Shown here piece after piece: positions 9,852 through 28,872 of a stretch of DNA of 64,000 nucleotides. This DNA comes from Candidatus Binatia bacterium. Its GTDB lineage: Bacteria; Desulfobacterota; Binatia; UBA9968; JAJDTQ01. Every line of letters begins with the position of its first letter. The first letter of the stretch is position 1. The stretch lies in contig OY762897.2 of the NCBI GenBank assembly GCA_963666515.2, positions 1,632,001 through 1,696,000 of the forward strand. Direction: 5' to 3'. A program made the position numbers and the translations under genes. The notes below the pieces were generated by a model, which made no database searches, was not told the DNA's origin, and saw nothing but the letters and a program-made list of their open reading frames with translations.

Positions 9852-9959
9852 GACTTGTGTCCGTGAAGGGACGCCAAAACGCGAAAACCGGAGAAATGCG
9901 CGCATCTCTCCGGCTTTCCGGCGTTGCTCCGCGCCGCTCCGGTCTGTCCGAAGACCGGG

Positions 9960-10808
9960 TCAGGTGACCCGCAACTCGTCCGCCGGGAGCCCGATGGCGG
10001 CCCGGGCCAATCGTATCTGCTCCCTCGTGGTGATCACCCGGAAAGACCTGGCCGTCTTGATGGCCCAGAACGTCTCTTCCTGTATCTCCCGGGTGACGGC
10101 GTATTTCTTGAGGATGTCCAGCACCCCGCCGCCGTGGACCTGGTCCTTGCTCTGGTGGAGGCCGGCGTTCATCAGCGACCCTTCCGGAATTCCGCAGAGC
10201 TTCTCGACCCGGTTGGCGCTGGCCGCCCACGGGCCTTCGAACTCGCCCTTGTCGAGATAGCCCCGCTTGACCGCAACCCGGATGCTCTCGAGGCCGCCGA
10301 TGGCCGCGTAGCCGCCCTGCCACGTCAGTGTCCGGCTCAGATTGTCCAACGCGTGCATGCAGGCCATGAAGATCGGCGTGGGCTCGAACGCCTCTGCCTC
10401 CTCACGGGAGATGCCGAGTTGCTGAGAGTCGTAGTAGAGCACCTCGATGTGGCACATGCCGTCGGCGTCGGGGTCGCTCACCTCCTCGTCCCAGCAGTCG
10501 TGGAGGATCTCGCGGCGGACGTCCTGGTAGGGGCACTTGGCGGCGATGTTCATCAGGTAGCTGGGAAACATCTTTGCGAAGAAGCTGTGGTTCATCTGCC
10601 AGACGCCGAAGTACCGCCTGGCCTTGTCGGGGTCGTTCAGGACCTCGTCGGGAATCGGCGGGTGGTTCGTGTAGGTCCGCACCACGTCGGCCTGGGCCCG
10701 CAGGAACCGTGCTTCGTACTCCTCCGGGGAGAAAGCTGCACCATCGGTTTCCGGGGGCGCTCGGAAGAAAGTCTTCGTGGTGATCACATCGGCTTGGGCA
10801 TCGGACAT
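9960..10808 (-). CDS. Heme-oxygenase-like diiron enzyme (PqqC/CADD/TenA superfamily)
   Basis: DEE...H (WDEEV...CHIE), GGLES, H..KD..H (LHQSKDQVH) metal-ligand pattern. Confidence 0.7.
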   Translation of the reverse strand: MSDAQADVITTKTFFRAPPETDGAAFSPEEYEARFLRAQADVVRTYTNHPPIPDEVLNDPDKARRYFGVWQMNHSFFAKMFPSYLMNIAAKCPYQDVRREILHDCWDEEVSDPDADGMCHIEVLYYDSQQLGISREEAEAFEPTPIFMACMHALDNLSRTLTWQGGYAAIGGLESIRVAVKRGYLDKGEFEGPWAASANRVEKLCGIPEGSLMNAGLHQSKDQVHGGGVLDILKKYAVTREIQEETFWAIKTARSFRVITTREQIRLARAAIGLPADELRVT

Positions 10809-11029
10809 CGTAACGCTCCTTGGTTGGAATCGTTCGACACGAACGTCTCTTCCGCCCGTATCAGAAGGTCCGTAGTGTGTCAACGAAGCTCCTGACCGCA
10901 CCCGGAGCACGCTTTACTCCCCCGACGGGGATTGATATATCCGCTGCCAAACCGTCCGCCGGACCCCGCGTTGATCGTCCGTGAAGGCACTTGCGCGGCA
11001 CCACCCCAGCGGATGGACGAGGAGGTCCC

Positions 11030-12211: not shown

Positions 12212-12253
12212 CGCGCGGGGGTTCTCCATGCAGAAAGGGCAAGGGAGAAGCAC

Positions 12254-13858: not shown

Positions 13859-13873
13859 GACGCCAGCGTGGGA

Positions 13874-14431
13874 TCAGGGCCCCGGCAACCTGTCCGGAAA
13901 GCCGTGGAAGATCAGGCCGCCCACGAAACCCACGATGGGCGGCAGCACGAGACTGGCCAGGAACCGGGCTACGGTTACCTCCAGGCCCAGTATGGGAATT
14001 TCCCAGATAATGACCCGGTGGAAGCCGATGAGGGACCACGACGTCAGATAGGCGATGATGGGTCCGGCGCCTGCGCCCGAGGCCATCAGTGAAGCCACGA
14101 TGGGAAAGTGCATCATGGGCCCGCCAGGGGTGAACGCTCCGGCGGCGGTGCCGATCATGAGCCCGCGCACCCCGGAGCCCTCTCCGATCCACTTGGAAAT
14201 CAGGTCCGTCGGGAGAATGACCTGGATCAGACCCGCCACCGCAAAGGCGAAGATCATCTTGGGAAGCGTGTTCATCAGGAGTTGGCCGCCGCTCGACAGA
14301 CCCGCCACCGCCCGCGGCGCACCATAGGAATGGACCACGTACACGCCCACGACGATGCTGGCCACGAACATGAACCAAAAGCCCCCGTCCATACCGAGTC
14401 TCCCTGTTATGCTGCGCTTTCTCTGTCGCAT
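13874..14431 (-). CDS. Predicted permease (DUF318-like, half-size)
   Basis: Hydrophobic protein with GAFTPGGP...FP and GAG.GP..AYLTSW; start 14431 or 14392. Confidence 0.7.
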   Translation of the reverse strand: MRQRKRSITGRLGMDGGFWFMFVASIVVGVYVVHSYGAPRAVAGLSSGGQLLMNTLPKMIFAFAVAGLIQVILPTDLISKWIGEGSGVRGLMIGTAAGAFTPGGPMMHFPIVASLMASGAGAGPIIAYLTSWSLIGFHRVIIWEIPILGLEVTVARFLASLVLPPIVGFVGGLIFHGFPDRLPGP

Positions 14432-14560
14432 ACCGCGCTCAACTCCATCGGCTCCCGATCCCGTTGACCCCTTTCGCGAAGCTTTCGCAACTTGACACAA
14501 ACGGAACCCCGATTGTAGTTCTTTAGGCTCGGCGAACAGCGGGAGAACACCGAGGACGGC

Positions 14561-15865
14561 ATGCTGACGAAGGAAGACAACGAGATTCTGACGAGGGTGG
14601 GGCCGGGGACGCCCATGGGCGAGTTGATGCGGCGGTACTGGGTGCCGGTGGTGCTTTCCGGCGAGTTGGAAGCGGGAGGGCGGACCAAGCGGGTGCGCAT
14701 CCTGGGCGAGGACATGGTGGCCTTTCGCACCTCCCAGGGCGAGGCCGGGCTGCTCGGCGAGTATTGCTCGCACCGGCGGGTCTCGCTCTATTTCGGCCGT
14801 GTGGAGAAGGACGGGCTCCGCTGCTGCTACCACGGGTGGAAATACGGGCTGGACGGGCGCTGCCTGGAGATGCCCAACGAGTCGCCGGAGACCGACTTCA
14901 AGCACGCGGTTCGGCACCCTGCCTACCCGTGCCGCGAGCGCGGCGGCGTCGTGTGGGCGTTCATGGGCGACCCGGCGCACATGAACGAGCTGCCGGACTT
15001 CGAATGGCTGCACCTGCCTGACAACCAGCGCTTCATCTCCAAGTACTACCAGGACAGCAACTACTTCCAGGCACTCGAGGGCGGTATCGATTCGAGCCAC
15101 ATCTCCTTCCTGCACGCGCCTCTCAGCTCAGCGGACCGGGCGTCGCTGAAGGACATCGAGAGGGCCGGCTTCGGCGTCGACACCGCGGTAGAGTCGTCGG
15201 ACCGGAGCCCGCGGTTCGAGGTGGTGGACACGGAATACGGCGTGATGATCGGCGCCCGGCGCAATGTCGCCGACGACCGGTACTACTGGCGCATCACGCA
15301 GTTCCTCATGCCCTTTTACACCATGCCGCCGCCCCAGGACGAAGACCCGATCCTGCATTCCCATGCCTGGGTCCCGGCGGACGACGGGCACCTGATCAAC
15401 TGGACCATCACGTGGCATCCGGGGCGGCCGTTGAAGGAGGAAGAGCTGGTGTCCTTCAACACCGGCCTGAGCGCGCACATCACGGAGTTCGGGCCAGCCG
15501 TGAACGGCCCTTACGGCGACGTTCGACCGGCCGCGACCCGGGCCGAGGACTACGGCATGGACTGGCAGGCGCACCGCACGCGCATGTTCTGCGGCATCCC
15601 CGGCTTCGGTATGCAGGACCGCGCCATGACCGAGAGCCAGGGTCCCATCTTCGACCGCACCCGCGAGAGGCTGGGGACCAGCGACACCGCCATCATCCAG
15701 GTGCGCAAGTGCCTCATCGACGCCGCCAAGATGCTGCGGCAGGAGCAAGCCGAACCGCCGGGGCTCGATCCGAAGCTCCACCACATCCGCGCCACCTCCG
15801 TGCGGTTGCCCAAGGACGCGGTGTGGGTCGAAGCAGTGAAGGATCAGGTGAACATCACGCCGTAA
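14561..15865 (+). CDS. Rieske oxygenase alpha subunit (phthalate 4,5-dioxygenase-like)
   Basis: LTRVGPGTPMGELMRRYW, CSH...CCYHG, EGGIDSSHISFLH, QDRAMTESQG. Confidence 0.9.
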   Translation: MLTKEDNEILTRVGPGTPMGELMRRYWVPVVLSGELEAGGRTKRVRILGEDMVAFRTSQGEAGLLGEYCSHRRVSLYFGRVEKDGLRCCYHGWKYGLDGRCLEMPNESPETDFKHAVRHPAYPCRERGGVVWAFMGDPAHMNELPDFEWLHLPDNQRFISKYYQDSNYFQALEGGIDSSHISFLHAPLSSADRASLKDIERAGFGVDTAVESSDRSPRFEVVDTEYGVMIGARRNVADDRYYWRITQFLMPFYTMPPPQDEDPILHSHAWVPADDGHLINWTITWHPGRPLKEEELVSFNTGLSAHITEFGPAVNGPYGDVRPAATRAEDYGMDWQAHRTRMFCGIPGFGMQDRAMTESQGPIFDRTRERLGTSDTAIIQVRKCLIDAAKMLRQEQAEPPGLDPKLHHIRATSVRLPKDAVWVEAVKDQVNITP

Positions 15866-15899
15866 GTTGCCGTGTTCATTGCCAGTTCGCCGGGAAACC

Positions 15900-16157
15900 A
15901 TGACGTTTGAAGAGTACATGGCCGTGCCCTACGTGCTGCGCGTCGCCGCGGTGCGGGGAGCCGACGGTCGCTGGCTGCGGCGGGCGGAGTATCCGGAGTT
16001 GCCGGGCTGCTTCGGCGAGGGACTTTCGCCGGAAGACGCCTTGGCCGATCTGGACCGAAACCGCGAGCGCATGGTTCGGGAGCTTCTCGCCGCGGGGGCG
16101 CGCGTCCCGGTGCCCCGCCCGCCCCTGGAAAGGTTGCTGAGAACCCGAATCGGTTGA
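15900..16157 (+). CDS. HicB-like protein (N-terminal RNase H-like domain only)
   Basis: AEYPELPGC..EG.S.EDAL..L......G..VP.P. Confidence 0.7.
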   Translation: MTFEEYMAVPYVLRVAAVRGADGRWLRRAEYPELPGCFGEGLSPEDALADLDRNRERMVRELLAAGARVPVPRPPLERLLRTRIG

Positions 16158-16205
16158 CGAGACATCGGAATTTCGAGTCCACGACACGGAGAAGGGAGAC
16201 TTGCT

Positions 16206-16664
16206 TTGAGCTTTGGAATGAAACAGGCACGGGCGCTGGTGGATGCGGGCATTCACGCGGCGGAGGAAAAAGGTTACCAGGTGGCGGTGACCATCGTCGA
16301 TGCCGGCGGGAACTTCATGTGGTCGGGGCGCATGGACGGGACCAAGTTCGTGGCTCCGGACATCGCCCGGGCCAAGGCGTTTACCGCGGCCGCCTTCCGC
16401 CAGAGCACCGCGGTGCTTGAGGAAAAGGCCAACCCGAAGCCGGTCTTCTACACCGGCGTGCAGGTGGTGCACGGCGGGCACATCGCCATCGGCCAGGGGG
16501 CGCTGCCCATCTGGATGGGAGATGCGGTGGTGGGAGGCATCGGCGTCAGCGGCGCGGCGCCCCAGGAGGACGAGGAAGTGGCGGCTGCGGCGCTGGAGGC
16601 CGAGGGCTATTCGTTCCCGGACGCGGACGTGGCTACCCGCGCGGCGCTGGGGCATTCAAGGTAG
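16206..16664 (+). CDS. GlcG/HbpS heme-binding family protein
   Basis: IVDAGG...RMDG, A..KAFTA, GGIGVSGA...ED. Confidence 0.88.
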   Translation: MSFGMKQARALVDAGIHAAEEKGYQVAVTIVDAGGNFMWSGRMDGTKFVAPDIARAKAFTAAAFRQSTAVLEEKANPKPVFYTGVQVVHGGHIAIGQGALPIWMGDAVVGGIGVSGAAPQEDEEVAAAALEAEGYSFPDADVATRAALGHSR

Positions 16665-16673
16665 ACGGGGCTC

Positions 16674-17459
16674 GTGGGACGCATCCAGGGAAAGGTCGCA
16701 TTCATCACCGGCGGCGGAGGCGGCATCGGCGCCGCCACCGCCATGCTGTTCGCGGAGGAAGGCGCCCGGCTGGTGCTCGTGGACCGCGACGGCGCCTCCG
16801 CCGACGCCGCGGCCGCCGATATCCGCGACAGGCTCCCCTCGGCGGACGTCATGCCCATGGCGGCGGACTTGAGCGACGAGACGCAGACGAACCGCGCGGT
16901 GGACGCCGCGGCGGCCTACTTCGGCGGCCTCGACATCCTCGTCAACGTCGCCGGGATCCGGGTATACGGGGCCCTCGCGGAAGCCGAGCCGGACAGTTGG
17001 GACTCCATCCTGGCGGTCAATCTCATGGCCACCGTCCATTGTTGCAGGGCCGCCATCCCGCTGCTGCGGTCGCGCGGCGGCGGCAGCATCGTCAACGTCT
17101 CTTCGGTCTTCGGGGTCACCGGACGGGCGGGAATGGGACAGTACGACGTAACCAAGGCCGCGGTGGTGAGCCTCAGCCGCACACTGGCCATCGAGGAGGC
17201 GAGTCACGGGATTCGGGTCAACGCCGTCTGTCCCGGCCCCACCATCACGCCCTTCCACATCCAACGGGCCAAGGCCCGCGGCGTGAGCGAGGAAGAAATG
17301 CGCCGCACCGGCGCGCAGCACACGCTGATGAAACGGTGGGCCGAGCCCCGTGAGGTGGCCCATACCATCCTGTTCCTGGCCGGCGACGAGTCGTCCTTCG
17401 TCACCGGCACGGCGCTGGTGGTGGACGGCGGCGCCTCTGCCGCGGTCGGCAGGTCTTGA
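16674..17459 (+). CDS. SDR family oxidoreductase
   Basis: TGGGGGIG, NVAG, YDVTK, RVNAVCPG. Confidence 0.92.
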   Translation: MGRIQGKVAFITGGGGGIGAATAMLFAEEGARLVLVDRDGASADAAAADIRDRLPSADVMPMAADLSDETQTNRAVDAAAAYFGGLDILVNVAGIRVYGALAEAEPDSWDSILAVNLMATVHCCRAAIPLLRSRGGGSIVNVSSVFGVTGRAGMGQYDVTKAAVVSLSRTLAIEEASHGIRVNAVCPGPTITPFHIQRAKARGVSEEEMRRTGAQHTLMKRWAEPREVAHTILFLAGDESSFVTGTALVVDGGASAAVGRS

Positions 17460-17473
17460 CGCGAACGGCGGCC

Positions 17474-17824
17474 TCAGTCCGCCAGCGGCACCACCGCGAA
17501 GACGTGGGGCTCGTCGCCGATGACGCGGCTCCGGTGGCCGCGCCCGGTCAGGTCGTCCGCAAGCATGATGTCGCCGGCCTGGAACCGCCGCACCTCGCCG
17601 CCGCCGCATTCGATGTCCCACTGCCCGGACAGCGTGAACAGGTACTGGCGCCGCGGCGCCGGGTGCCAGTCCAACAGCACGCCGGGCGGCACTCGCCGCA
17701 CGTGCACGCTCTTGGCGTCTCCGAGAGACGTGCTTTCCATGTTGCGGTCCGGCTGGAAGTCCAACTCGATCTCCTCGAAATGGGATTCGCCGTCGTCGCC
17801 GCTGTAGAGTCTCACTGCCTGCAT
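17474..17824 (-). CDS. Cupin domain protein
   Basis: LYSGDDGESHFE, WHPAPRRQ, D.TGRGH. Confidence 0.8.
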   Translation of the reverse strand: MQAVRLYSGDDGESHFEEIELDFQPDRNMESTSLGDAKSVHVRRVPPGVLLDWHPAPRRQYLFTLSGQWDIECGGGEVRRFQAGDIMLADDLTGRGHRSRVIGDEPHVFAVVPLAD

Positions 17825-17825
17825 G

Positions 17826-19007
17826 TTACCCCGCTTTCTTCTCGCCCTCATTCCAGACCACGGCGCCCGCCGTCGTGGGCACGCACGCGGCCTTGACAGT
17901 ATCCCGGATAATCCCCTTGGGATCCTCGCCCCGCTTGACCGCCTCGATGGCGGTCCGAAGTATCCTGCGGAACATCAGCACCCCTTCATCCGAAGTGACG
18001 TGATGCTCCAGCCGGTGGTTGGCGATCTCGCCCTGCCCTTCCTGGGCTTCCTTGTCGTCGGGATGGCGCTGGCTGTACTCGTAGCTCGTGTCCGACCTTC
18101 CGCCGGGCGCGAGCTTTGCGCGTCCGCTCAAAACGGTCTCGTCCACGTCCTCCGGCATCCACCGGATGTTGGCCGACCTGACGTGCGTGTCGTCCACGGG
18201 AACACAAAAGGAGACCTGGTTTACTTTCGTCGTCTTGAGCTCGTCCGTGTAGACAAGGTGGGCGTTCAGGGGCATGACCATCTCCCAGATCAACTCGGCC
18301 CACCGGCCGCCGTCGAGCTTCTGGACCATGACGAAACGCATGCCCATCTCCGTCTCTTCGTATCGGAGTTCCTCCGGCAGCGAGGTGAACACCTGGGTGG
18401 GGAACTGGGAGCCGCTGTGAAGCGTATGCAGCCACACGGTGTGCAGCGCGTCCATGAGGTTTTCCTCGGTCTGGAGCCAGTTGCAGTCGACGGAACCCCC
18501 AATGCGCGGCCCGAACCTCGCGTAGAATTTCCCTCCCTCATGGACCCAGGCGTCGTACTTGGGAAGCTCCGGCATCTTCTCCAGCGGCCCCATGTAGGCG
18601 AAGACCAGGCCGCCGAACTCCCGCACCGGGTACGCCGGGTGCCATAGATGGTCCTTCACCGTGCTTTCGGGCGGTTCCAGCGGCATGTCGAGGATGCGCC
18701 CCTCCACGTCGTAGAGCCAGCCGTGATAGCAGCAACGCAACCCGTCCCGCTCTACCCGTCCATACTCCAATGAGGTGCCCCGGTGGCTGCAACGAAAGAA
18801 GAGCAGCCCCGCCCGGCCTTCGCCGTCACGGAAGGCGACGAGATCCTCGCCAAGGATGCGGATGCGCTTGGGCAGATCTCCCAGATCGCGGGACAGGCAC
18901 ACCGGCTGCCAGTAGCGGCGCATCAACTCGCCGCAGGGCGTGCCCGGGCCGACACGGGTCAGTTCCGGATCGATTTCGGGGATCTTGAAGCCGTAGGCGC
19001 TCCTCAT
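17826..19007 (-). CDS. Rieske oxygenase alpha subunit, close paralogue of 11030-12211
   Basis: Near-identical N-terminus MRSAYG..IPEIDPELTRVGPGTPCGELMRRYW; same Rieske and Fe motifs. Confidence 0.9.
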   Translation of the reverse strand: MRSAYGFKIPEIDPELTRVGPGTPCGELMRRYWQPVCLSRDLGDLPKRIRILGEDLVAFRDGEGRAGLLFFRCSHRGTSLEYGRVERDGLRCCYHGWLYDVEGRILDMPLEPPESTVKDHLWHPAYPVREFGGLVFAYMGPLEKMPELPKYDAWVHEGGKFYARFGPRIGGSVDCNWLQTEENLMDALHTVWLHTLHSGSQFPTQVFTSLPEELRYEETEMGMRFVMVQKLDGGRWAELIWEMVMPLNAHLVYTDELKTTKVNQVSFCVPVDDTHVRSANIRWMPEDVDETVLSGRAKLAPGGRSDTSYEYSQRHPDDKEAQEGQGEIANHRLEHHVTSDEGVLMFRRILRTAIEAVKRGEDPKGIIRDTVKAACVPTTAGAVVWNEGEKKAG

Positions 19008-19155
19008 GGAGACGCTCCTCTCCGGTCCGGATCGTTCAGGACCCTAGAATCCTTGATCGACAGGATCTTGACTCAGGAAGACAAGATATTTGAACTGGAC
19101 TTCGTTCGTACATGAATACTATCGTAGGCCATCGCGAGTTGTAACGCTCGGTAGT

Positions 19156-20763
19156 TTAAGCGACGAGCTTCGCCTCATCGCAAATGGCATCGAGGTTCCT
19201 GGTGATGGCGGCAAAGCGCCGATGGGTCTTGGTATTGCCGCTCACGGCGTCGGGCGCAAGATGGGCCAGGCCGGGGCGAAGGATGCGGTTGTAGACACGC
19301 GTGTAGAACATCGCCACCTTGAGGCCGTGTTCGGTCAAGTGGTAGCGGTAGGCGCCGGGGATGCGCTCGATCAGGCCGTGCAGGCGCAGGCGTCTCAGGT
19401 CGTAACTCATTCGGCCCGGGCGCATTGGACTGGGATCGAGGCCCAGGAGTGCACCGAGGTGCCCGCGCAGGTCGCGGTTGGAGAAGCCGCGGGCCGAAAG
19501 AGTGAACAAGAGCAGGGCCTGCATCAGAGCCTGCACGCGCTCATCGGCGAAGCGCAGGGCCGAGGCGCGTTGTCCGTGGAACTCCAGGCCGCGTTGATGG
19601 CGTTGGAGTTCGTCTTCACCCAGGGCACAGTCGTGGCTGATGGTTTCTATCTGCAACAGACGACGGTTGGCTGTGAAGCCGACCTGGCACAACGCCGCCA
19701 GGTTAGACAGCCGCCGGCCCAGGGCGAAGTCATAGGTGTCGTTGACGGTGGTCTCGGTGCGCAGCGCCTGCCCTTCCTTGTGGTACTGCTTGATGCGCGA
19801 GTGCTTGTAGTCCACGTGCAAGGAAGGGGTGACGCCTGCGGTGATGACCCGGGTACGGAACCGACCGGGGGTGCGCCGGGTGACCCGGCGCTGGAAGATC
19901 AACTGCACCTGGCTGGGGCGACCGAGATCGAGGTTCTCGCGGATCACGTCCTCGAAAAAGACGCGGCCCGAGGCCGGGCGGTCGAGCACCTGGGTCAGGC
20001 TGAACTCCGCTTGCAGGATGGAGATGTCGTAGCGCAGACCGGCGCGACGGTCCTGAGGCGTATACGGATGCGGCAGGCGATCGAACCACTTGCGCGCCAG
20101 TCTGTCGATGAAAGCGGCATCGAAGCCTTCGCAGATCTGTTGCAGCGCCTCGGGGTCTCCGCAGCAGCGCACGCCGTTGTCCAAAGCCTCGAACGGGATG
20201 CCGCGCTCGCGCAACTGGCACTTGGCGTACTCGTTGCCGTTGAGGCACAGCTTGCCGTTGTACGGGAAGTAGGTGCAGAACTTGATGAAGAACGGCCCCG
20301 CCTGTTTGTCCACGCAATAGAAATACACATGGTTGACCATCGCGGTAGACGAGACCACCCACGGATAGGTGACCCCGGTGTCCGGGTTCCGGCGCCGCTC
20401 GGTGCGCATCACACGGGCCTTCTCCTGCGCTATCCCGATGTACAAAACCCCTTCGGTTCCCTTGAACCGCCCCAGGTACTCCTGCGTCACCTCGTCCTTG
20501 CGCTGGCCCTTCTTGAAGTGCACCACCTCGATCTGCTCCCGCTCCGCAAAGTCCTTCACCGCCTGCACGAACTCCCGACTCTTGGGCGCCAGCGCCACCG
20601 TCGACGCAAACCGCTGGCCATGGTGCTTGTGCAGATACCCCACTACCCCGCCCACGCTCTGCAACTGCGGCACATACAGGTTCAAGTACAGGCGATCCAC
20701 CGACTCGTATTCCAGCGTCACGTGATCGCGCAATACTTCCGCTACGGTTTGTGGTAGGCTCAT
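19156..20763 (-). CDS. Uncharacterised ~535-aa protein, putative Rep_trans-like tyrosine nuclease/transposase with C-terminal winged HTH
   Basis: SVDRLYLN, SILQAEF, IKQYHKEGQALRTE (Y-x-K...R-x-E); GFSNRDLR...SYDLRRLRLHGLIERIP..YRY wHTH; GGAG RBS before ATG 20763. Confidence 0.6.
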   Translation of the reverse strand: MSLPQTVAEVLRDHVTLEYESVDRLYLNLYVPQLQSVGGVVGYLHKHHGQRFASTVALAPKSREFVQAVKDFAEREQIEVVHFKKGQRKDEVTQEYLGRFKGTEGVLYIGIAQEKARVMRTERRRNPDTGVTYPWVVSSTAMVNHVYFYCVDKQAGPFFIKFCTYFPYNGKLCLNGNEYAKCQLRERGIPFEALDNGVRCCGDPEALQQICEGFDAAFIDRLARKWFDRLPHPYTPQDRRAGLRYDISILQAEFSLTQVLDRPASGRVFFEDVIRENLDLGRPSQVQLIFQRRVTRRTPGRFRTRVITAGVTPSLHVDYKHSRIKQYHKEGQALRTETTVNDTYDFALGRRLSNLAALCQVGFTANRRLLQIETISHDCALGEDELQRHQRGLEFHGQRASALRFADERVQALMQALLLFTLSARGFSNRDLRGHLGALLGLDPSPMRPGRMSYDLRRLRLHGLIERIPGAYRYHLTEHGLKVAMFYTRVYNRILRPGLAHLAPDAVSGNTKTHRRFAAITRNLDAICDEAKLVA

Positions 20764-20767
20764 GTCC

Positions 20768-20909
20768 GGCTCCGGTTGCTTCGGGCTTTTATGCCCATTT
20801 GACCCTTTGAGGTCCGACCTTGCAAGGTCCCATGACCAGGGATTCAATCCCTGCTACAAGCGACCGGAGCCAATCCCCTTACCCCCTCGTCGGTCTGAGG
20901 CGAAGCCTC
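20768..20909. promoter_or_regulatory. Multi-hairpin structured leader of the putative element
   Basis: 14-bp outer stem (20768-20781/20858-20871) enclosing four hairpins, plus terminal GAGGC-GAA-GCCTC. Confidence 0.6.
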
Positions 20910-20917
20910 GCTAGGAA

Positions 20918-21017
20918 ATGGCGTCCTTCGACTTCGCTTCGCTACGCTCAGGACGAACGGGAACAGGTTTCCAAACGTTCGTCCTGAGCGTAGCGAAGCG
21001 AAGTCGAAGGACGCCAT
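20918..21017. repeat. Perfect 42-bp inverted repeat (REP/MITE-like palindrome)
   Basis: ATGGCGTCCTTCGACTTCGCTTCGCTACGCTCAGGACGAACG (20918-20959), 16-nt loop, exact reverse complement (20976-21017). Confidence 0.85.
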
Positions 21018-21033
21018 CTACGCGGGAACGCAA

Positions 21034-21084
21034 ACCGGCCGGGACACGTGGATGGAGAAACCATGCCGGCGTGTCCCGGCCGGT
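21034..21084 (-). terminator. Hairpin downstream of tctC genes, probable terminator
   Basis: 15-bp stem ACCGGCCGGGACACG/CGTGTCCCGGCCGGT followed by TTGCGTT on the minus strand. Confidence 0.5.
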
Positions 21085-21118
21085 GGAGTATTCGCGGTGA
21101 CTCGAGAAAGCTCCGCTA

Positions 21119-22111
21119 CTACTTCTTCTGCAAGGCCTCCTTGAATATGGGCGCGTAGTGGTTGATCAGGCCGTAGAAGCCATCAAGCGTCTTGTTCCAG
21201 TCCTCACCCACGACCGGCGACATCTTGGCTTTCATCCTCTTGAACCTGGCGATGACCTCCGGATCCTTCAGCGCCGTCTCGAACGCCTTTTGCAGGATCA
21301 TCTGCCGGTCCTTGGGCATACCCGGCGGAGCGGTGGCCACGCGGTGTGAGGCGAGAACGCTGAGCTGCGGAAAACCCAGTTCCCCTACGGTGGGGACGTC
21401 GGGGTACCTGGGATCGCGCTTGTCCAGGTAGACCCACATGGGCCTCATGTTGCCGTCCTCCACGAACACCATCTGGCCCGGGGAATCCAGGCCCAGGGCC
21501 CTGGCGTGGCCCTCCCCTCTGACGATGCCCATGTTGGCCGCGGGAGCGCCCGGATAACCCAGGATGAACTTCGGATTGAACCCCATGACCTTGGCGGTCA
21601 ACAGGTTCGCGATCCATCCGGTGGCGCCTACCCCCGTGCCGGTGAGAAGGACCTCCTTGGCTTCCTGGAAGTCCTTGAGGTTTTGGAACTTGGTCTTGGC
21701 GCCCACCGCCCAGACGTAGGGGCCGGAGGATATCCGTCCGAGCCAGGAAAACTCCTTCAGCTTGTAGACCGGCTTGGGATCCGCGAACAGCTCGGAGACG
21801 ATGGCCCCGGGGATGTTGACGGTGCCGATGGTGTAGCCGTCTGGTTTGGCTTTCCACAGCAGGTTCCAGGAAATGGTTCCGCCGGCGCCCGGCCGGTTCC
21901 TGAGAATGACGTTCACGCCGAGGGCTTTCTTCAACCCGACGCTCACCGCCCGGCTGTGAAGATCGAACCCGCCCGCGGGTGCGTAGGGGATCAACCACGT
22001 GATGGTCTTGCCCTTCTCCGGCCAAGTCCCTTGAGCTGACGCATCCTGTGCGGGTACCGTCATCCCAAGGACGGCCAACAAAGAAAACACGCCGATCAGC
22101 TTACGCAACAT
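21119..22111 (-). CDS. Tripartite tricarboxylate transporter substrate-binding protein (TctC/Bug)
   Basis: Signal peptide, PYAPAGGFD, N.PGAGG, KPDGYT, PDVPT..E, APPGMP. Confidence 0.88.
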   Translation of the reverse strand: MLRKLIGVFSLLAVLGMTVPAQDASAQGTWPEKGKTITWLIPYAPAGGFDLHSRAVSVGLKKALGVNVILRNRPGAGGTISWNLLWKAKPDGYTIGTVNIPGAIVSELFADPKPVYKLKEFSWLGRISSGPYVWAVGAKTKFQNLKDFQEAKEVLLTGTGVGATGWIANLLTAKVMGFNPKFILGYPGAPAANMGIVRGEGHARALGLDSPGQMVFVEDGNMRPMWVYLDKRDPRYPDVPTVGELGFPQLSVLASHRVATAPPGMPKDRQMILQKAFETALKDPEVIARFKRMKAKMSPVVGEDWNKTLDGFYGLINHYAPIFKEALQKK

Positions 22112-22175
22112 CGAAAACCTCCTTGCCGGTTTGGTGCCTGTGCTCGCTTGTGTCCAGATGGTCCGTTCTCTTCCA

Positions 22176-23162
22176 CTACTTCTGCAGCGCCGCCTTGAAG
22201 ACGTCGCCATGCTCCTGAATCAGGCCATAGAAGTCCCCTAGCATCTTGTTCCAGTCCTCGCCCACCACCGGTTCTATGCGCGCCTTCATCTTGTTGAACC
22301 GGTCCAGCACTTCCGGGTCCCTGGTGGCCGCGTCGAACGCCTTCTGGAGCAGGGCCAGCCGGTCCTTGGGCATGCCCGGAGGAGCGGCCACCACCCGGTG
22401 GGAGGCAAGCACCGAAAGGCCCGGATAACCCAACTCTCCCACCGTCGGGACGTTGGGGAAGTCCGGATCGCGCTTGTCCAGGTAGACCCACATGGGCCTC
22501 ATGGTGCCGTCATGGATGAACGCCATCTGGCCCGGCGAGTCCAGGCCGAGGCCGCGGGCGTGACCCTCGCCTCTGACGATCGCCATGTTGGCGGCCGGGG
22601 CACTGGGGAAGCCCAGTATCTGCTTGATGTTGAACTTCATGACCCTACCGGTCAGGGTCGACGTGACCCACTCCGTGCCGCCGACCCCGGAGCCGGTGAC
22701 GAGGACTTCCTTGGCCTTCCGGAAGTCCTCAAGCGTCTTGAACGGCGTCTTCGCTCCCACCGCCCACATATACGGGGCGGCGGAGATTTGCCCGATCCAG
22801 GAGAACTCTTTCAGGCGGTACTCGGGGGTGGGTGTGCCGAACAGCTCGGAGACGATGGCGCCGGGGATGTTGACGGTGGTGATGGTGTAACCGTCGGGCT
22901 TGGCGCCCCAGGTGAGATTCCATGCGATATTCCCGCCCGCGCCGGGCCGGTTGCGGATGATGATGTTGACGCCGAGCGCCTTCTTCATGCCGATGATCAT
23001 GGCGCGGCTGTGGAGGTCGAACCCGCCGGCCGGACCGTAGGGAATCAGCCAAGTGATGGTCCTGCTCGGATACTTGTCCGCCGAGACGGCCGAACCCGAG
23101 AGGCCGAAGGCCAGCGCGATGATCCCGACCAGCAGTCCTGTCGCAATGCGTTTCGCTCGCAT
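22176..23162 (-). CDS. TctC/Bug substrate-binding protein, tandem paralogue
   Basis: Same motifs; extensive identity to 21119-22111. Confidence 0.88.
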   Translation of the reverse strand: MRAKRIATGLLVGIIALAFGLSGSAVSADKYPSRTITWLIPYGPAGGFDLHSRAMIIGMKKALGVNIIIRNRPGAGGNIAWNLTWGAKPDGYTITTVNIPGAIVSELFGTPTPEYRLKEFSWIGQISAAPYMWAVGAKTPFKTLEDFRKAKEVLVTGSGVGGTEWVTSTLTGRVMKFNIKQILGFPSAPAANMAIVRGEGHARGLGLDSPGQMAFIHDGTMRPMWVYLDKRDPDFPNVPTVGELGYPGLSVLASHRVVAAPPGMPKDRLALLQKAFDAATRDPEVLDRFNKMKARIEPVVGEDWNKMLGDFYGLIQEHGDVFKAALQK

Positions 23163-23236
23163 GGGGCACCTCCGAAGTTTCGTTGGCGTCGCCCCCGTAT
23201 GCCACAGGCGCGATGAGCCTGTCAACGAAAGCAGAA

Positions 23237-23860
23237 TCAGATGAGGCTCTTGAAGTAGCTCAGATCCCCCTGCCCTTCGCGCAGGATCTCAGTGGTGTCG
23301 TCCACCAGCGAGATCACGCTGGATGCCAGCACCGGAAGAGTCCCGCACTCCATGATGAGGTCCACCCGATGCCCGAAGATCCTCTCCAGGTCGGCCGGAT
23401 TGGTCACCACCTCTTCGTCGCTCTCGTTGGCGCTGGTGCTGACTACGGGACTGCCGAGCTGCTCCACCAGCGCCAGCGGCACCGGGTGATTCGGTATCCG
23501 GATGCCCACGGTCTTCTGCTTGGACTGGAACACCCGGGGCGTTTCCTTGGTGGCAGCGAGCACGAACGTGTAGGGTCCGGGAAGGAACCGCTTCAGGATG
23601 CGGTGCGCGAAGTTCGACACGTGGCCGTAACGGCTCACCTGGACCAGGTCCGAGCAGACGAACGACATGGGTTTGTTGGCGTCGCGCCCCTTGATGCGGC
23701 GGATGCGCTCCACCGCGGCCTTGCTGGTCACGTCGCAGCCCAGGCCGTAGATCGTGTCGGTGGGATAGACGATGACGCCGTCGCGCTTCAAAACATCGAC
23801 GGCGCGGTCCACGTGCCGTCCCTTAAGGTGGTGGGGGTCGATGCTTAGAGTGGTGGCCAT
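23237..23860 (-). CDS. L-threonylcarbamoyladenylate synthase family (YrdC/YciO/Sua5)
   Basis: YPTDTIYGLGC, K.R...KP, LPGPYT, GIRIP, STSAN. Confidence 0.9.
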   Translation of the reverse strand: MATTLSIDPHHLKGRHVDRAVDVLKRDGVIVYPTDTIYGLGCDVTSKAAVERIRRIKGRDANKPMSFVCSDLVQVSRYGHVSNFAHRILKRFLPGPYTFVLAATKETPRVFQSKQKTVGIRIPNHPVPLALVEQLGSPVVSTSANESDEEVVTNPADLERIFGHRVDLIMECGTLPVLASSVISLVDDTTEILREGQGDLSYFKSLI

Positions 23861-23869
23861 AGGAGTCTC

Positions 23870-24952
23870 TCAGGGCGAGGACACATCCGTGCGCCGGGTC
23901 ATGAACAGGTCCACCGGAAGCCGCGTGCCCAAGCTCCGCTTCCGGGCTTCCTCCAGCACCAGGTGGCCGATGGCGGCGAACTGGATGCCCATGCCGCAGT
24001 TGTTGTTGTGGTGGGTGATCTCCGAGGCGGTGGTGCGGCCGGCGATATTGCCGATGACCAGGTCGCCCAGCTCGTGGATCTGCTCCCAGCCGATGATGCC
24101 CTTCCTGATCGGCGACATCAGCTCGGGTTGCTCGTCGATCTCCACCTGCTCCTTGGAGTTCACCACGATGAGGTCGCAGTTCTCGATGGCGGCGTCGTCC
24201 AGCTCCCGGCGCTTGTCGAACCAGTCCGGGCCGATCATGGAGACGACGTGGGTGCCGGGCTCCAGCAGGTCACCGTCGAACACCGGATCGCCGGAGTTGG
24301 TGGCGGTCACCACGATGTCCGAGTCGTGGACCACGTCCTCGGGCCGCCGCACGGCCCGCGCCTTGACGCCGTAGCGCTCGGTCACTTCCCTGGCGAAGCG
24401 CTGTCGGTTCTCCTCCCGCAGCGAGAACACCTTCACCTCCCGGATCTTCCGCACCGCGCAAAAGGCCGACACCTGGCCGTGGGCCTGGGTGCCGCTGCCG
24501 AAGATGCCCAGCACTGAGGCGTCCTCCCGCGCCAGGTACTTGGCCGCAACCCCGCTGGTGGCTCCGACGCGCAACGCCGACAGGTAGTGGTCGTGGACGA
24601 TGCCCTTGAGAGCCCGCTCCTTGATGCTGAACAGCAGCACGAAGCCGGCAAAGTCCCCGGGGAACTCCATGCGGCTCGCGCCATCGACATTGCGGAACCG
24701 TATCTGCGACGAATCGAGCCGCACCGCGGCGGTATCGAAGGCCGGAACCGCCCCGGGAATGACGTTCAGCCAGTACCAGGTGCGCTCCAGGCCCTCCTGC
24801 GGCATGTGCAGCCGGCGCCGGGGCATCCCCTCGGCGATCTTCCGGCCCAACTCGCGGTACGCCGTCTCCACCGCCTCCACGATCTCCCCCATGTCGAGGA
24901 GACCCTCCATGTCCTCGTTGGTCAGGACCCGCACGTCCTCATCAGCCATCAT
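23870..24952 (-). CDS. Ornithine cyclodeaminase/mu-crystallin family protein
   Basis: LRVGATS..A.KYLAR, GIFGSG.QA, ATNS, G..QFAA. Confidence 0.85.
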   Translation of the reverse strand: MMADEDVRVLTNEDMEGLLDMGEIVEAVETAYRELGRKIAEGMPRRRLHMPQEGLERTWYWLNVIPGAVPAFDTAAVRLDSSQIRFRNVDGASRMEFPGDFAGFVLLFSIKERALKGIVHDHYLSALRVGATSGVAAKYLAREDASVLGIFGSGTQAHGQVSAFCAVRKIREVKVFSLREENRQRFAREVTERYGVKARAVRRPEDVVHDSDIVVTATNSGDPVFDGDLLEPGTHVVSMIGPDWFDKRRELDDAAIENCDLIVVNSKEQVEIDEQPELMSPIRKGIIGWEQIHELGDLVIGNIAGRTTASEITHHNNNCGMGIQFAAIGHLVLEEARKRSLGTRLPVDLFMTRRTDVSSP

Positions 24953-25154
24953 GAACCCCTTCCGTCCCGGTGTTTCCTGCCGCGCACGTCCCGCGTGGGC
25001 TTCGACGCGGCCCCTGTCGGTTCAACGACTTACGTAGACCGGTGGTCAGTCCCCGTCAAGTCGCGCCTTGCCGGCGGGGTTGCCATCGGTTCTTCCGAGC
25101 CCTTTGACTTCCCTTGCAAACGGCCCGTACCGGTATATAAATTTCAAGAGGACA

Positions 25155-26948
25155 ATGTTTCGACCCATGCGACCCATACTCACCCTCGCGGCAGCGGCGG
25201 CGCTCCTGATCTTCGCGGCGCCGGAACCGGCCCGTTCTCGCGACCTTGCGCTCGTCGAGCAACTGAAGAAGAACGCCGCCGAGTTCCGCTACGAGAACGG
25301 CAAGCCGGGAGGCGCGTTGACCTACTCGACGATCTCCGGTCCGAAGACCTTCAACCTCGCCATCTCGACGGAGACCTCCTCTACCGAGATCCTCAACTAC
25401 GTGTTCGAAGGGCTCGTCGAGACCTCATGGCTTACTGCGGAGGTAGAGCCGGCCCTGGCCGAACGCTGGGAGGCTTCCGAAGACGGGCTGGTCTGGACTT
25501 TCCACCTGCGCAGAGGGGTCCAGTGGGCAGACGGCGCGCCCTTCTCCGCCGATGACGTCGTCTTCACGTTCTCCAGGATCATCTACAACAACGACATCCC
25601 GGCCTCGGCCCGGCCCGGCCTGACCATCCGCTATCGCGACGACGCCACGCAGACCTGGAAAAAGGGCCGGCTCAAGGTCGAGAAGATCGACGCGCACACC
25701 GTGAAGTTCACCCTGCCGGCGCCGTTCGCGCCCTTCCTGCGGGGCATGTCCACCTCGATCTATCCCAGGCACATCCTGGAAAAACATGTGGACGACGGCA
25801 CTTTCACGTCCACCTGGGACGTGGGCACCAGGCCCGCCGACATCATCGGCACCGGACCCTTCACCATCGAGCGCTACGACGCGGGCGAGCGCATCGTCCT
25901 CAAGCGGAACCCGCGGTACTGGCAAAGGGACGCGGCGGGAACCCCCCTGCCCTACCTCGACCGGATCGTCTACCTGGTCGTGCCCAACCTGGCCACCTCG
26001 CTGCTGAAGTTCCAGGCCGGCGAGACCGATATCCTGCAGGTTACCGGGGAGCACTATCCGATCCTGAAACCGCAGGAGGCGGCAAAGGGCTTCACGCTGC
26101 ACAGGCGCGGGCCCAACTTCGGGACCACCTTCCTCGCCCTCAACATGAACCCCGGCAAGAATCCCAAGAACGATGCGCCGTTCGTCGATCCGGTCAAGCT
26201 GCGCTGGTTCCGCACGTTGGCCTTCAGAAAGGCGCTGGCCCACAGCATCGACAAGGACAGCATCATCGACAACGTCATGAACGGCCTCGGTTATCCCCAG
26301 TGGGCCGCGGTCAGTCCCTCGGCCGGCGACTTTCACAACCCGGCCGTCACCCGGTACCCGTACGACATCGCCAAGGCCAACGCCCTGCTCGACGGCCTGG
26401 GCTGGTTCGACGTGGACGGCGACGGCGTGCGGGAAGACGACGAGGGCAACCGCATCGTCTTCAACCTGTCGACCAACTCGGGCAATACGGTACGGGAACG
26501 GGTATGCACGATCATCAAGCAGGACTTGGCGAGAATCGGCATCCGGGTCAACCTGCGGTTTCTGGAGTTCAACACCCTGGTGTCCCAGCTCACCAGCACC
26601 TACGACTGGGAAGCCATCGTGATCGGCTTCACCGGCGGCGTGGAGCCTCACTACGGCATCAACTTCTGGCATTCCGGCGAACGGCTTCACCTGTGGTTCC
26701 CGAACCAGGAGGAACCCGCCACCGAGTGGGAACGGCGGATCGACGAGCTGTTCGTGAGCGGCAGCCGCGAGCTGGAGCATGACAAGCGCGTTGCCATCTA
26801 CCGTGAGTTCCAGCAGGTCGCGTCCGACAACGTCCCCGTCGTCTATACCGCGCTGGCCGAGCGTATTACGGCCCTGCGCAATCGCTTCGCCAATGTCACG
26901 CCGACCCTGTTCGAGCTGTTCGACGTAAGGCGGCTTCACTTGAAATGA
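25155..26948 (+). CDS. ABC transporter substrate-binding protein, family 5 (DppA/OppA-like)
   Basis: Signal peptide, PALAERWE.S.DG..WTFHLR.GV.W.DG, GTGPF. Confidence 0.9.
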   Translation: MFRPMRPILTLAAAAALLIFAAPEPARSRDLALVEQLKKNAAEFRYENGKPGGALTYSTISGPKTFNLAISTETSSTEILNYVFEGLVETSWLTAEVEPALAERWEASEDGLVWTFHLRRGVQWADGAPFSADDVVFTFSRIIYNNDIPASARPGLTIRYRDDATQTWKKGRLKVEKIDAHTVKFTLPAPFAPFLRGMSTSIYPRHILEKHVDDGTFTSTWDVGTRPADIIGTGPFTIERYDAGERIVLKRNPRYWQRDAAGTPLPYLDRIVYLVVPNLATSLLKFQAGETDILQVTGEHYPILKPQEAAKGFTLHRRGPNFGTTFLALNMNPGKNPKNDAPFVDPVKLRWFRTLAFRKALAHSIDKDSIIDNVMNGLGYPQWAAVSPSAGDFHNPAVTRYPYDIAKANALLDGLGWFDVDGDGVREDDEGNRIVFNLSTNSGNTVRERVCTIIKQDLARIGIRVNLRFLEFNTLVSQLTSTYDWEAIVIGFTGGVEPHYGINFWHSGERLHLWFPNQEEPATEWERRIDELFVSGSRELEHDKRVAIYREFQQVASDNVPVVYTALAERITALRNRFANVTPTLFELFDVRRLHLK

Positions 26949-27003
26949 CCCTGAACCCGTCCTGGTCGGCGATGGCGTTGCGGAGACCCCGGATGATGCG
27001 ACC

Positions 27004-28872
27004 ATGACGGCCTACATCGTGCGGCGGCTGCTGATCACGATCCCGTCGCTCTTCGCCCTCACCTTCGTGATATTCATGATCATCCAGATCGCTCCGGGGG
27101 ACTACTTCGACCAGTGGGCGCTTCAACCCGACCTCGATCAGCGGCAACTGCGCCAGTGGAAACGCGAGTTCGGCGCCGACAAGGGCTGGGGCACGCAGTA
27201 CCTGCGATGGTTGCGCGGCGTCCTGCTCGACGTCCGCTTCTCCCGTGAGCGCGTTCGCATCGCCGACTTCGAATACGCCGACCTGGCCGCCAACCGTGAC
27301 GCCTACCAGATCGGCGGCGACGCCACGCCCATCCTCGTCCCGTTGCGAGCGGACGGCACCTTCGCGCTCGCCTTCAACTTCGACGCCGCCGGAGACGTCG
27401 GCGTGCTGCGGAAGACGGACAATCCCAACCGGGCGAGCCGGCGCCCCGGCAACCACTGGTCCGGCGATGACTTCCGGTCCGTTGAAATGGAGCTCCGAAA
27501 CGACCGGGCCGGCGGCGCCGACGTCTTCCTGCGCATCCAGGATCGGAACGGAAAGGCGTTCCGGGAGCGCCGCTCCTTCGACGCCGGCGAACCGGCGGCG
27601 GTCTCGCTGACCGACACCGACTACGCCCGCTTCGGCGTGGACCGGAGCAGGCTCAAGGGGCTGTTCCTGTTCGCGCGTCAGCGCGGCGGAAGGCCGGCGG
27701 TGCTGGAGGTCGCCTACCATGCGGGGAACACGGTGCTGGCTACGGTGCGCCACACCCTGGATCCGACCCGGCGCCTGGCGTTGGCCCGCAATGCCTTTCC
27801 GGCCGGACTCGGGGACCCGGGCCGCGTGGACCGCATGACCTTCCGCACCATCCCGGAGCCGCTGCCGGACATGACGGTGACCGTGACCTTCCGGGACCTG
27901 GACTCGAACGCCTACGCCACCGGCGTCGCCCTGCCCGGAAACGTCACCACGTCGCTCTCGGTCGACTTCGCCGACATGCACGCCGCCGGCGTCGATACCA
28001 CGCGCATGGGGTCGATCTCGTTCCGCAGCGACGTCCCCGGATCCCTGTTCGTGGACGAGGTCCGCCTCGTGAAGGCCGGCAGCGGCTTCCACGTCGGCGC
28101 GCCGGATTTCGGCAAATCCATCGCCAACCGCCAGCCGGTGTGGACCACCATGTGGCCGTTTCTCAAGAACACCATGCTCCTGAACGTGCTGGCCATCCTG
28201 TTCACGTGGCTGCTGTCGCTGCCCATCGGCATCTACTCGGCGACGCACCCCTACTCCTGGAGCGACAAGGCGTTCGGCTTCATGGCCTACATGGGCATGG
28301 CCATCCCCTCGTTCTTCTTCGCGCTGTTGCTGCTCTACGCCGTGACGCTGACCTACGACTTCGACCCGGCCAACCCGTTGTACGAATGGCTTCCCATCGG
28401 CGGGCTCACGTCGGCGAACTACCACGAGCTGGATACGTGGGGGCGGATGATGGACCTGGCCCGTCACCTGGTTCTGCCGGTGCTCGTGCTCGGCACCGGC
28501 GCCATGGCCGCGCTGGTCCGCGTGCTGCGGGCCGAGTTTCTCGACAAGAGCCACATGCAGTTCGTGGTCACCGCACGGGCCAAGGGCCTCTCCGACGCCA
28601 TGGTCAACTACAAGCACATCCTGAGGAACGCCATCACCCCGTTCGTGGCCGGCTTCGGCTCCCTGCTGCCGACCCTCATCGGCGGCTCGGCCCTGGTGGA
28701 GATCGTTTTCGGCTACCCGGGGATCGGGCAACTGATGCTTGCCGCGGTGCGTTCCTACGACATCTACGTCGTCATGGCCAGCTCCCTGGCCGGGGGGCTG
28801 CTGCTGATCATCGGCAACCTGCTCGCCGACATCCTGCTGGCCTGGGTCGACCCGCGCATCAGCTACAGGTAG
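27004..28872 (+). CDS. ABC permease DppB-like with ~280-aa extracytoplasmic insertion
   Basis: YIVRRLL N-terminus, DFGKS, TARAKGL....V..KH.LRNA, DPRI; insert ~27241-28080. Confidence 0.85.
   Translation: MTAYIVRRLLITIPSLFALTFVIFMIIQIAPGDYFDQWALQPDLDQRQLRQWKREFGADKGWGTQYLRWLRGVLLDVRFSRERVRIADFEYADLAANRDAYQIGGDATPILVPLRADGTFALAFNFDAAGDVGVLRKTDNPNRASRRPGNHWSGDDFRSVEMELRNDRAGGADVFLRIQDRNGKAFRERRSFDAGEPAAVSLTDTDYARFGVDRSRLKGLFLFARQRGGRPAVLEVAYHAGNTVLATVRHTLDPTRRLALARNAFPAGLGDPGRVDRMTFRTIPEPLPDMTVTVTFRDLDSNAYATGVALPGNVTTSLSVDFADMHAAGVDTTRMGSISFRSDVPGSLFVDEVRLVKAGSGFHVGAPDFGKSIANRQPVWTTMWPFLKNTMLLNVLAILFTWLLSLPIGIYSATHPYSWSDKAFGFMAYMGMAIPSFFFALLLLYAVTLTYDFDPANPLYEWLPIGGLTSANYHELDTWGRMMDLARHLVLPVLVLGTGAMAALVRVLRAEFLDKSHMQFVVTARAKGLSDAMVNYKHILRNAITPFVAGFGSLLPTLIGGSALVEIVFGYPGIGQLMLAAVRSYDIYVVMASSLAGGLLLIIGNLLADILLAWVDPRISYR

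Follow-up and report, generated by a model that had tools for sequence, protein, structure and literature searches.

A Predicted Antisense Cloverleaf RNA and a DNA Mini-Hairpin at the Left Tip of an Unnamed, Probably Rolling-Circle-Type Insertion Sequence

The Element, Its Copies and Its Target

The window, i.e., the whole 64,000-nucleotide stretch of DNA that was analysed, carries an insertion sequence with a single 535-aa putative transposase gene on the minus strand (Table 1). Positions 20764..20914 are the left tip of this widespread, unnamed and probably rolling-circle-type element. Two separate signals seem to be combined there, a small cloverleaf RNA and a tiny DNA hairpin, and both lie on the same (bottom) strand of the element, i.e., the window plus strand. 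The CTAG at 20911-14, noted in the preliminary description as terminal, proved to be the true end of a nine-copy element: window 19044-20914 occurs nine times in the genome with 0 mismatches and unrelated flanks, each copy having the form CTAG...CTAG. The element has no terminal inverted repeats.

Table 1. Features of the insertion sequence and its left end in the window.
Feature	Position	Strand	Basis
Whole insertion sequence, 1867 bp, followed by target CTAG	19048..20914	-	nine identical copies, unrelated flanks
Target tetranucleotide CTAG beside the putative origin end	19044..19047	.	single CTAG at empty site; homolog right ends
Right end with family motif CTTGACTCA...TCAAG; putative origin	19048..19087	-	conserved 3' of homolog stop codons; kept in miniatures
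535-aa putative transposase: TBP-like domain (~15-378) and MarR/PadR-like winged helix (~400-505)	19156..20763	-	structure prediction, homologs
Predicted extended -10 promoter TG-G-TAGGCT, antisense, over ORF codons 2-4	20752..20760	+	TAnnnT in leaders; NTA codon
Predicted antisense RNA: 14-bp closing stem (20768-81/20858-71) and four hairpins	20768..20871	+	folding, covariation; transcription inferred
Transposase Shine-Dalgarno GGAG within the stem that closes the mirror (mRNA) fold	20770..20773	-	sequence; 6 nt before ATG
Inner hairpins of the cloverleaf	20783-96, 20801-14, 20816-29, 20837-53	+	minimum-energy fold
Variable C/U-rich spacer; U-tract absent in window copy	20872..20885	+	leader comparison
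Subterminal motif (ORF strand: AGACCGACGAG), conserved	20886..20896	+	homologs; kept in miniatures
GAGGC-GAA-GCCTC DNA mini-hairpin, putative termination signal	20897..20909	+	GNA loop kept in homologs
Element-encoded terminal tetranucleotide, putative ter cleavage site	20911..20914	+	homolog ORF-strand tetramers, mostly CTAA

The empty site of another copy, in genome G008, contains one CTAG only, and the left and right tetramers are unlike in 54 of the 58 full elements with both ends; the left tetramer is therefore owned by the element, and the right CTAG is the target. The right end was CTAG in 57 of these 58 elements, in a search whose pattern permitted CTAG, CTGG or CTAA only. Insertion takes place 5' of CTAG without duplicating it, and the apparent CTAG duplication in this genome is a coincidence. 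Duplication of a CTAG or CTA target was rejected, since the left tetramers of homologs are unlike the target.

In relatives, the right end reads CTTGACTCA...TCAAG, then CTAG; that of the window copy carries an extra inverted box. A TTGACT in the right end was considered as the -35 box of a junction promoter and discarded, as inspection by eye showed no -10 box at 17 bp. At window 19088-19155, the right end stands ~108 nt 3' of the stop codon, compared with 45-60 nt in most relatives (about twofold). The target itself is rare in this genome, with 1197 CTAG sites versus 9757-28859 for five other palindromic tetramers. The left ends of L032, L039, L051 and L056 abut sequences that we take to resemble IS630 termini; such termini would provide CTAG targets where CTAG is scarce.

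The element protein was not found in the 60 related genomes searched, 27 of them from the same genus, which suggests that the element is a recent arrival in this genome. The ORF itself has at least 8000 relatives (protein clusters), mostly on contigs of ~2 kb, and 10,355 representatives were retrieved at E 0.001. Its named matches are labelled 'hypothetical protein' or, for one distant relative, 'ArsR family regulator'. No relatives of the element were present in the phage records or viral contigs searched, and no published description of the family was listed in the literature searched, which lay mostly outside subscription journals.

The Left End and Its Mini-Hairpin

At the left end of relatives, a tetranucleotide is followed by a single base, a hairpin of 5 bp and AGACCGACGAG, and ~100 to 670 nt separate this end from the ATG. 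The ORF-strand tetramers of 82 left-end matches (two rows of which duplicate sites on one contig) were CTAA in 50, CTAG in 15, CCAG in 4, TTAG in 3 and other in 10. When the search imposed no loop sequence, 71 of the 82 matches had a GNA loop on the bottom strand; so did 36 of 47 further matches and, for 70 leaders retrieved via the protein, 42 of 61 matches. A simple estimate of the chance expectation is ~6%. The chief departure from GNA is a clade whose loop is AGG (11/61), which carries an inverted left-end copy further inside, an arrangement seen in 21 of 90 leaders.

Several left ends have additional structure. In the L064-L095 clade and in L045, L048, L055, L058, L059, L131 and L164, the left 22 bp recur in inverted form 30-65 nt inside and so make a long hairpin; in the L064-L095 clade, a U-tract lies between this inverted copy and the cloverleaf on the antisense strand. 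In L157 (181-860), the spacer from left end to cloverleaf is enlarged by ~500 bp that include a small gene in the opposite orientation, presumably for a GxxExxY protein, and text resembling the flank of this spacer precedes the L054 leader.

Hairpins of the type GCGNAGC are described as extra stable in DNA and much weaker in RNA, the RNA figure in that source being for GCGAAAGC (PMC13037366). By analogy with IS91 and Helitrons, the GCGAAGC hairpin is most likely a DNA termination signal. The preliminary description had suggested an ssDNA origin or recognition structure; for this hairpin, with its GNA loop kept even in miniature elements, a role as ssDNA signal does seem likely, although at the probable termination end and not at the origin.

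Miniature Elements

A motif scan returned 21 rows of elements of 80-582 bp that are reduced to their two ends. A single contig carries three copies of one 89-bp type, with differing flanks, and one miniature lies in a genome of the same genus. The miniatures keep the right-end motif, the subterminal motif and the GNA hairpin, while the cloverleaf model (see below) gave no match in the 13 miniature loci searched, a set to which five further loci did not belong. The hairpin is therefore tied to mobility and the cloverleaf to the ORF. Moreover, because miniatures of 80-90 bp without a cloverleaf exist in multiple copies, the cloverleaf is dispensable in cis for mobility, which weakens the earlier idea that it might itself be the ssDNA origin. 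At L188:296-710, five miniatures, four of one type and one of another, are arranged head to tail with single CTAG junctions, an array that may represent a concatemer or repeated self-insertion.

Conservation of the Cloverleaf Fold

All stem arms listed in the preliminary description are present where it placed them. Folded as RNA, the 104 nt of 20768-20871 (+) adopt a five-way junction as the minimum-energy structure (-54.1 kcal/mol; z -7.31; 0/200 shuffles as stable), so that the outer stem and four hairpins proposed earlier are recovered together, and in a fold better than shuffled controls. Two of the hairpins needed correction: 20837-53 pairs as 7 bp with a 3-nt loop, and the supposed palindrome at 20816-29 folds as 5 bp with a 4-nt loop. 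The mirror strand of the same segment reaches -53.2 kcal/mol (z -6.43). For the longer segment 20750-20920, z is -4.44 as RNA and -2.56 as DNA, 5 of 200 shuffles being as stable in the latter case. The Shine-Dalgarno sequence had correctly been assigned to the outer stem: with the ORF on the minus strand, it is the minus-strand GGAG at 20770-73.

The structure is conserved upstream of homologous ORFs. Among 86 leaders, a count that includes the window leader and leaves out two with mis-trimmed stem ends, 84 have z < -2; 69 contain three inner hairpins and 9 contain four. Median identity of the leaders to the window leader is 41%. A covariance model built from 10 related leaders yielded 48 matches at E 0.0025 among 99 sources, including the window at 37.4 bits, all on the antisense strand, which is the strand used for model building. 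In the model alignment, 95.2% of cells are paired and 25 of 28 pairs show double changes; none of 500 shuffles reaches this pairing and slid controls remain far below as well, the support from covariation being somewhat overstated because the alignment was fitted to the structure. The cloverleaf fold is real and conserved, with compensatory changes. RNAalifold, run on a plain alignment of 56 leaders, recovered the closing stem only because subfamilies misalign, and the covariance model was used instead.

In the window and 20 homolog loci, no Rfam family covering the cloverleaf passed the gathering threshold, unrelated tRNAs alone doing so, and an E-value scan of Rfam gave chance hairpin matches only, none on the cloverleaf. 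The fold occurs in Proteobacteria, Acidobacteria, Actinobacteria and Verrucomicrobia. A relative with 41% identity has similar ends and a different leader without the cloverleaf, so the cloverleaf RNA is a trait of a subfamily.

A Conserved Antisense -10 Box

An extended -10 box, TG-G-TAGGCT (20752-60, +), lies 7 nt upstream of G20768, the base at which pairing in the closing stem begins. TAnnnT is present in 85 of 88 leaders, the remaining three keeping TA, and in 33 of 34 sequence clusters formed at 70% identity; 42 of the 85 also have the extended TG. Placement is narrow, with a box-to-stem spacing of 5-8 nt in 69/85 leaders and 75/85 boxes located 9-10 nt from the CTCC of the stem. TGnTAnnnT at this spacing is a sigma-70 promoter. 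A comparable box was found in just 25 of 892 host ORFs.

The box leaves its mark on the protein-coding sequence. The codon beneath it is NTA in 88/88 leaders (Val 34, Ile 25, Leu 29), whereas NTA is used at the next three Leu/Val/Ile codons in 3/76, 6/84 and 8/83 cases and at 3.4% across the ORFs; this rare codon stands at that place because the box forces it. As the TA was located within a narrow window, the figure of 88/88 arises partly by construction, which is not so for the reading frame and the sixth T (84/88). To judge from the leader sequences, it is the stem that the box follows in its position and not the start codon. The closest ATG in frame precedes the NTA codon by two codons in 57 leaders and by one in 22; six leaders have TCG or TCC at the start position, with the nearest ATG 23 codons up, inside the fold, and the arrangement is otherwise different in three leaders of 88.

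There is no conserved -35 box among the leaders, and a consensus promoter scan, which requires one, returned no promoter. From the box's conservation and distance to the stem, we infer promoter activity on the antisense strand. Most likely, the box drives outward transcription of the cloverleaf, with a predicted RNA start at about G20768. At least five U follow the stem in 23/85 leaders, mostly of one clade, and none in the window copy; the 3' end of the predicted RNA is uncertain.

Strand Signals in the Fold

Two features favour the antisense strand. Loops of the type cUUCGg occur 15 times on the antisense strand versus 0 on the sense strand (7 versus 0 among the 34 clusters), the window copy having no UUCG loop. 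Interior mismatches of the closing stem on the mRNA strand are A-C in 42 cases and G-T in 1. Less clear-cut is the refolded antisense strand, with 35 G-T versus 16 A-C. In a permissive, strand-neutral fold, G-U pairs in the closing stem number 65 antisense versus 27 sense, or 8 versus 9 by distinct contexts, and those in the inner hairpins 32 antisense versus 62 sense. GNRA loops are more frequent on the sense strand (7 versus 3), and the sense fold is the more stable one in 46/86 leaders. The strand signals are thus not uniform across leaders. Selection may act on both mirror folds, which is what an antisense RNA paired with a target leader would lead one to expect. It is unlikely that deamination of the displaced strand alone produced the stem asymmetry, since roughly one case in two is T-to-C on the ORF strand and A does not outnumber T at fourfold sites.

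The preliminary description had also listed a cis-regulatory RNA among its readings. Sequestration of the ribosome-binding site in the mRNA is possible, but three features, namely the antisense -10 box conserved among leaders, UUCG loops on the antisense strand and G-U pairing in the outer stem, point to a separate RNA from the window plus strand, which is the strand drawn in the preliminary description. It is the placement of the box at start-site distance, together with the strand bias of cUUCGg, that leads us to read the cloverleaf as, most likely, an outward antisense RNA. A purely cis-acting structure in the transposase mRNA, which would hide the Shine-Dalgarno sequence from read-through transcripts, with the TA motif being an operator or a bias of translation starts, would account for the Shine-Dalgarno inside the stem, the equal stability of the sense fold, the sense-leaning G-U pairs of the inner hairpins and the lack of a cloverleaf in ORF-less miniatures. 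We nevertheless regard it as unlikely: it leaves unexplained why the box is fixed to the stem instead of the start codon, why six leaders keep stem and box with no ATG after GGAG, and why UUCG loops lie antisense and A-C mismatches in the mRNA stem, and a single hairpin would be enough to hide a Shine-Dalgarno sequence.

The strand whose displacement is predicted carries the box, the closing stem and the G-T pairs alike, and the DNA fold beats its shuffles (z -2.56), which would also fit a single-stranded promoter: box and stem on the displaced bottom strand would form a pre-melted site for RNA polymerase that primes second-strand synthesis. Single-strand origins of this kind are known from M13 and rolling-circle plasmids. 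We consider such a role here quite improbable, since miniatures of 80-580 bp, some multi-copy, lack the structure, and since its loops are of the RNA type (UUCG), with one cGNAg triloop among 88 leaders, unlike the terminal hairpin. Furthermore, IS91 is described as inserting as a bottom-strand ssDNA circle, which the dsDNA circle did not do (PMC13181058).

The Putative Transposase

Structure models of the 535-aa protein are confident, with a pLDDT of 85.7 over the full length and 90.7 for residues 1-378. The C-terminal part aligns with MarR/PadR-type winged helices (Z 9.4, rmsd 2.9, 90 aligned). The N-terminal domain aligns with TBP (Z 9.0, rmsd 4.3, 180 aligned) and with the Rep_trans structures 4cij (Z 7.3, rmsd 4.4, 184 aligned) and 4cwc (Z 6.7, rmsd 4.8, 180 aligned); Foldseek matched it to 4cij with a probability of 0.99 and E 4.9e-4, an unrelated cyclase ranking first by E-value. 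A TBP-like fold of the Rep_trans type is accordingly predicted for this domain, at middling match scores. Nearly invariant are D23, Q251-x-E253, Y327-x-K329 and R335-x-E337: D23 is kept in 73/73 covering rows, and E253, Y327 and E337 in 79, 77 and 78 of 80. The four residues D23, E253, Y327 and E337 are all on predicted beta-strands, the first and second of the strands bearing the proposed catalytic residues being separated in the model by ~200 residues (30-245).

Sequence comparison gave no name to the protein. No Pfam or NCBIfam family reached its cut-off for the 535-aa protein, searches of PDB, Pfam, NCBIfam and PHROGs placed the N-terminal domain in no named family, and Atlas offered unnamed clusters only, with no usable named match for residues 1-378. 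PF02486 (Rep_trans) matched 0/80 members at E 0.1, and PF02371 touched 1/80, at E 0.077 only. DUF7845 (PF25227) gave no match, although the profile set searched contains its model, and a profile comparison with one Rep-Arvir protein, HRPV3 ORF9, had a probability of 0.2%. The near-invariant residues include no conserved HUH motif. The distant relative at L265:1110-3000 (25% identity), annotated as an ArsR regulator, has a GACGAG box and a CTAA motif ahead of it and possibly represents another subfamily with different ends.

Proposed Mechanism

The two signals can be combined into one scheme, a rolling-circle ter hairpin plus an antisense cloverleaf RNA that damps the transposase, for which, as a whole, we see the probabilities for and against as evenly balanced. 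In its DNA part, which we hold to be most likely correct, the putative TBP-fold tyrosine nuclease would nick the bottom strand at the CTAG adjoining the right end, the bottom strand would then be displaced, and the GNA mini-hairpin, folded as ssDNA, would set the stop by marking the second cut at the terminal tetranucleotide, much as the IS91 ter and the Helitron 3' end do. In its RNA part, host RNA polymerase would make a stable RNA of ~100 nt beginning at the first base of the closing stem and complementary to the transposase 5' leader, Shine-Dalgarno included. Acting alongside the mirror fold of the mRNA, this RNA would damp transposase synthesis in the manner of art200 in IS200. Repression of transposase synthesis is probably the job of the cloverleaf RNA, by that analogy; it would be an unusual antisense regulator in having both RNA ends locked in a stem, and the AUG would stay uncovered.

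Transposition with no rolling step is very unlikely in our assessment. It would proceed by peel-and-paste at both ends, as in IS200/IS605, or by a double-strand route, with the hairpin as a left-end binding site. Circles and one-ended insertions being hypothetical here, the fold match modest and inverted repeats present at both ends, such a route would have some footing. The layout, however, is IS91-like, with the target beside the end 3' of the gene and the element's own tetranucleotide beside one hairpin at the opposite end, the HUH motif is absent among the conserved residues, and the conserved Tyr is predicted on a beta-strand.

The antisense RNA could also be a structural partner of the transposase, either a cofactor or a titrating decoy, and not pair with the mRNA, in line with the protein-bound ncRNA among the readings of the preliminary description; the family would then be a widespread bacterial class of rolling-circle transposons with a non-HUH, TBP-fold tyrosine nuclease and an antisense four-way-junction RNA that binds it. 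We find this improbable. The junction topology of the RNA is conserved while the loops vary, its 5' and 3' ends are paired as in scaffold RNAs, a ~200-residue segment of the model (30-245) has no assigned role, and an RNA acting in trans would fit the absence from miniatures. Against this stand a target that is always CTAG and needs no guide, no leader segment being seen to vary with it, and a distant subfamily without the cloverleaf fold. In IS110/IS1111 elements, the target varies with a bridge RNA guide and the recombinase is of the DEDD type, in contrast to the CTAG with unrelated flanks found here.

Comparison with Known Systems

For the damping RNA of our preferred scheme, the nearest counterparts are the art200 antisense RNA of IS200, where a 5'-UTR stem additionally sequesters the Shine-Dalgarno, and RNA-OUT of IS10, likewise antisense (PMC4513863). 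Like art200 as described there, the predicted RNA is ~90-100 nt, cis-encoded opposite the transposase 5'-UTR and driven from a promoter in the ORF start, and as in IS200 an mRNA stem also hides the Shine-Dalgarno (PMC4513863). A conserved promoter opposite the transposase start, as in regulators of the art200/RNA-OUT type, is predicted here too, the conservation being that of sequence only. The element differs from art200 in its four- or five-way junction with paired ends, its unrelated transposase and the missing Rfam match, and its RNA is predicted to start upstream of the AUG, leaving the first codons uncovered, unlike art200 in the account consulted. The 535-aa protein also has no match to the small HUH Y1 TnpA family of IS200/IS605.

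IS91 is reported to insert without duplication, with the target next to ori, a palindrome beside the ter tetranucleotide and the bottom strand active (PMC13181058, PMC5714925). The present element shares the lack of duplication and the tetranucleotide target beside the end 3' of the gene; its opposite end likewise has one subterminal palindrome beside an element-encoded tetranucleotide, with the signals on the bottom strand. The published descriptions give IS91 an HUH Y2 enzyme, a CTTG/GTTC target and regulation by Orf121 (PMC13181058, PMC5714925), whereas here the predicted fold is TBP-like, a single Tyr is conserved, the target is CTAG and there is a structured RNA. As in the Helitron 3' end, the bottom strand (window plus) ends in a hairpin and CTAG-3', but the gap between them is 1 nt instead of 11 and the target is CTAG instead of AT (PMC4778049); moreover, the element is bacterial and has neither helicase nor HUH.

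By predicted structure, the protein resembles Rep_trans initiators (pT181 family, PF02486) in its TBP-like fold (4cij, 4cwc), and its order of Asp, acidic residue, Tyr-x-Lys and Leu-Arg-x-Glu matches D46, D142, Y191 and E214 as given for Rep_trans (PMC4797284, PMC5714925). It departs from them in having no PF02486 match, QxE in place of RxD, a large insert and a C-terminal winged helix, and it belongs to a multi-copy element of the chromosome for which the phage sets searched gave no match. The archaeal Rep-Arvir/DUF7845 initiators are described as joining a TBP-like domain (E25, D207, Y283, E303) to a MarR-like winged helix (PMC13107129). A TBP-like catalytic domain with a MarR-like winged helix and an origin 3' of the gene are common to both (PMC13107129), whereas there is no sequence link (no DUF7845 match), and Rep-Arvir belongs to a replicon, here to a transposon.

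Together, these comparisons suggest an element that would work like IS91 plus art200 while standing outside IS91, IS200, Rep_trans (by sequence), Rep-Arvir and Rfam. The rolling-circle transposases in the literature cited here are all HUH enzymes, as far as those accounts go; a Rep_trans-like fold as a transposase, if true, would mean that a replication initiator had been recruited once more, and independently. The 80-90 bp miniatures offer a ready minimal substrate, and the cloverleaf is an uncatalogued structured RNA with a precise, testable predicted start site. Where it is not followed by a terminator, an outward promoter at the tip of the element could also influence adjacent host genes.

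Genomic Surroundings of the Window Copy

The right end of the element lies ~37 nt upstream of an ORF that ends at 19007, which we take, from its motifs, to encode a Rieske-type oxygenase. Directly adjoining the left end, window 20915-21017 contains a REP-like palindrome to which the genome has 47 matches by BLAST, along with 32 core motifs, and contigs from three runs join 19042/3 to 21017/8, without the element and without the palindrome. Four contig sets contained no end-to-end joint of the element, and no RNA run was listed among the sequencing runs that carry it; these outcomes say nothing about circle formation or expression. A tRNA gene occupies window 58743-58815. At G000:C1:2645461-2645643, an internally deleted remnant of a related element retains part of the cloverleaf and fused pieces of the ORF.
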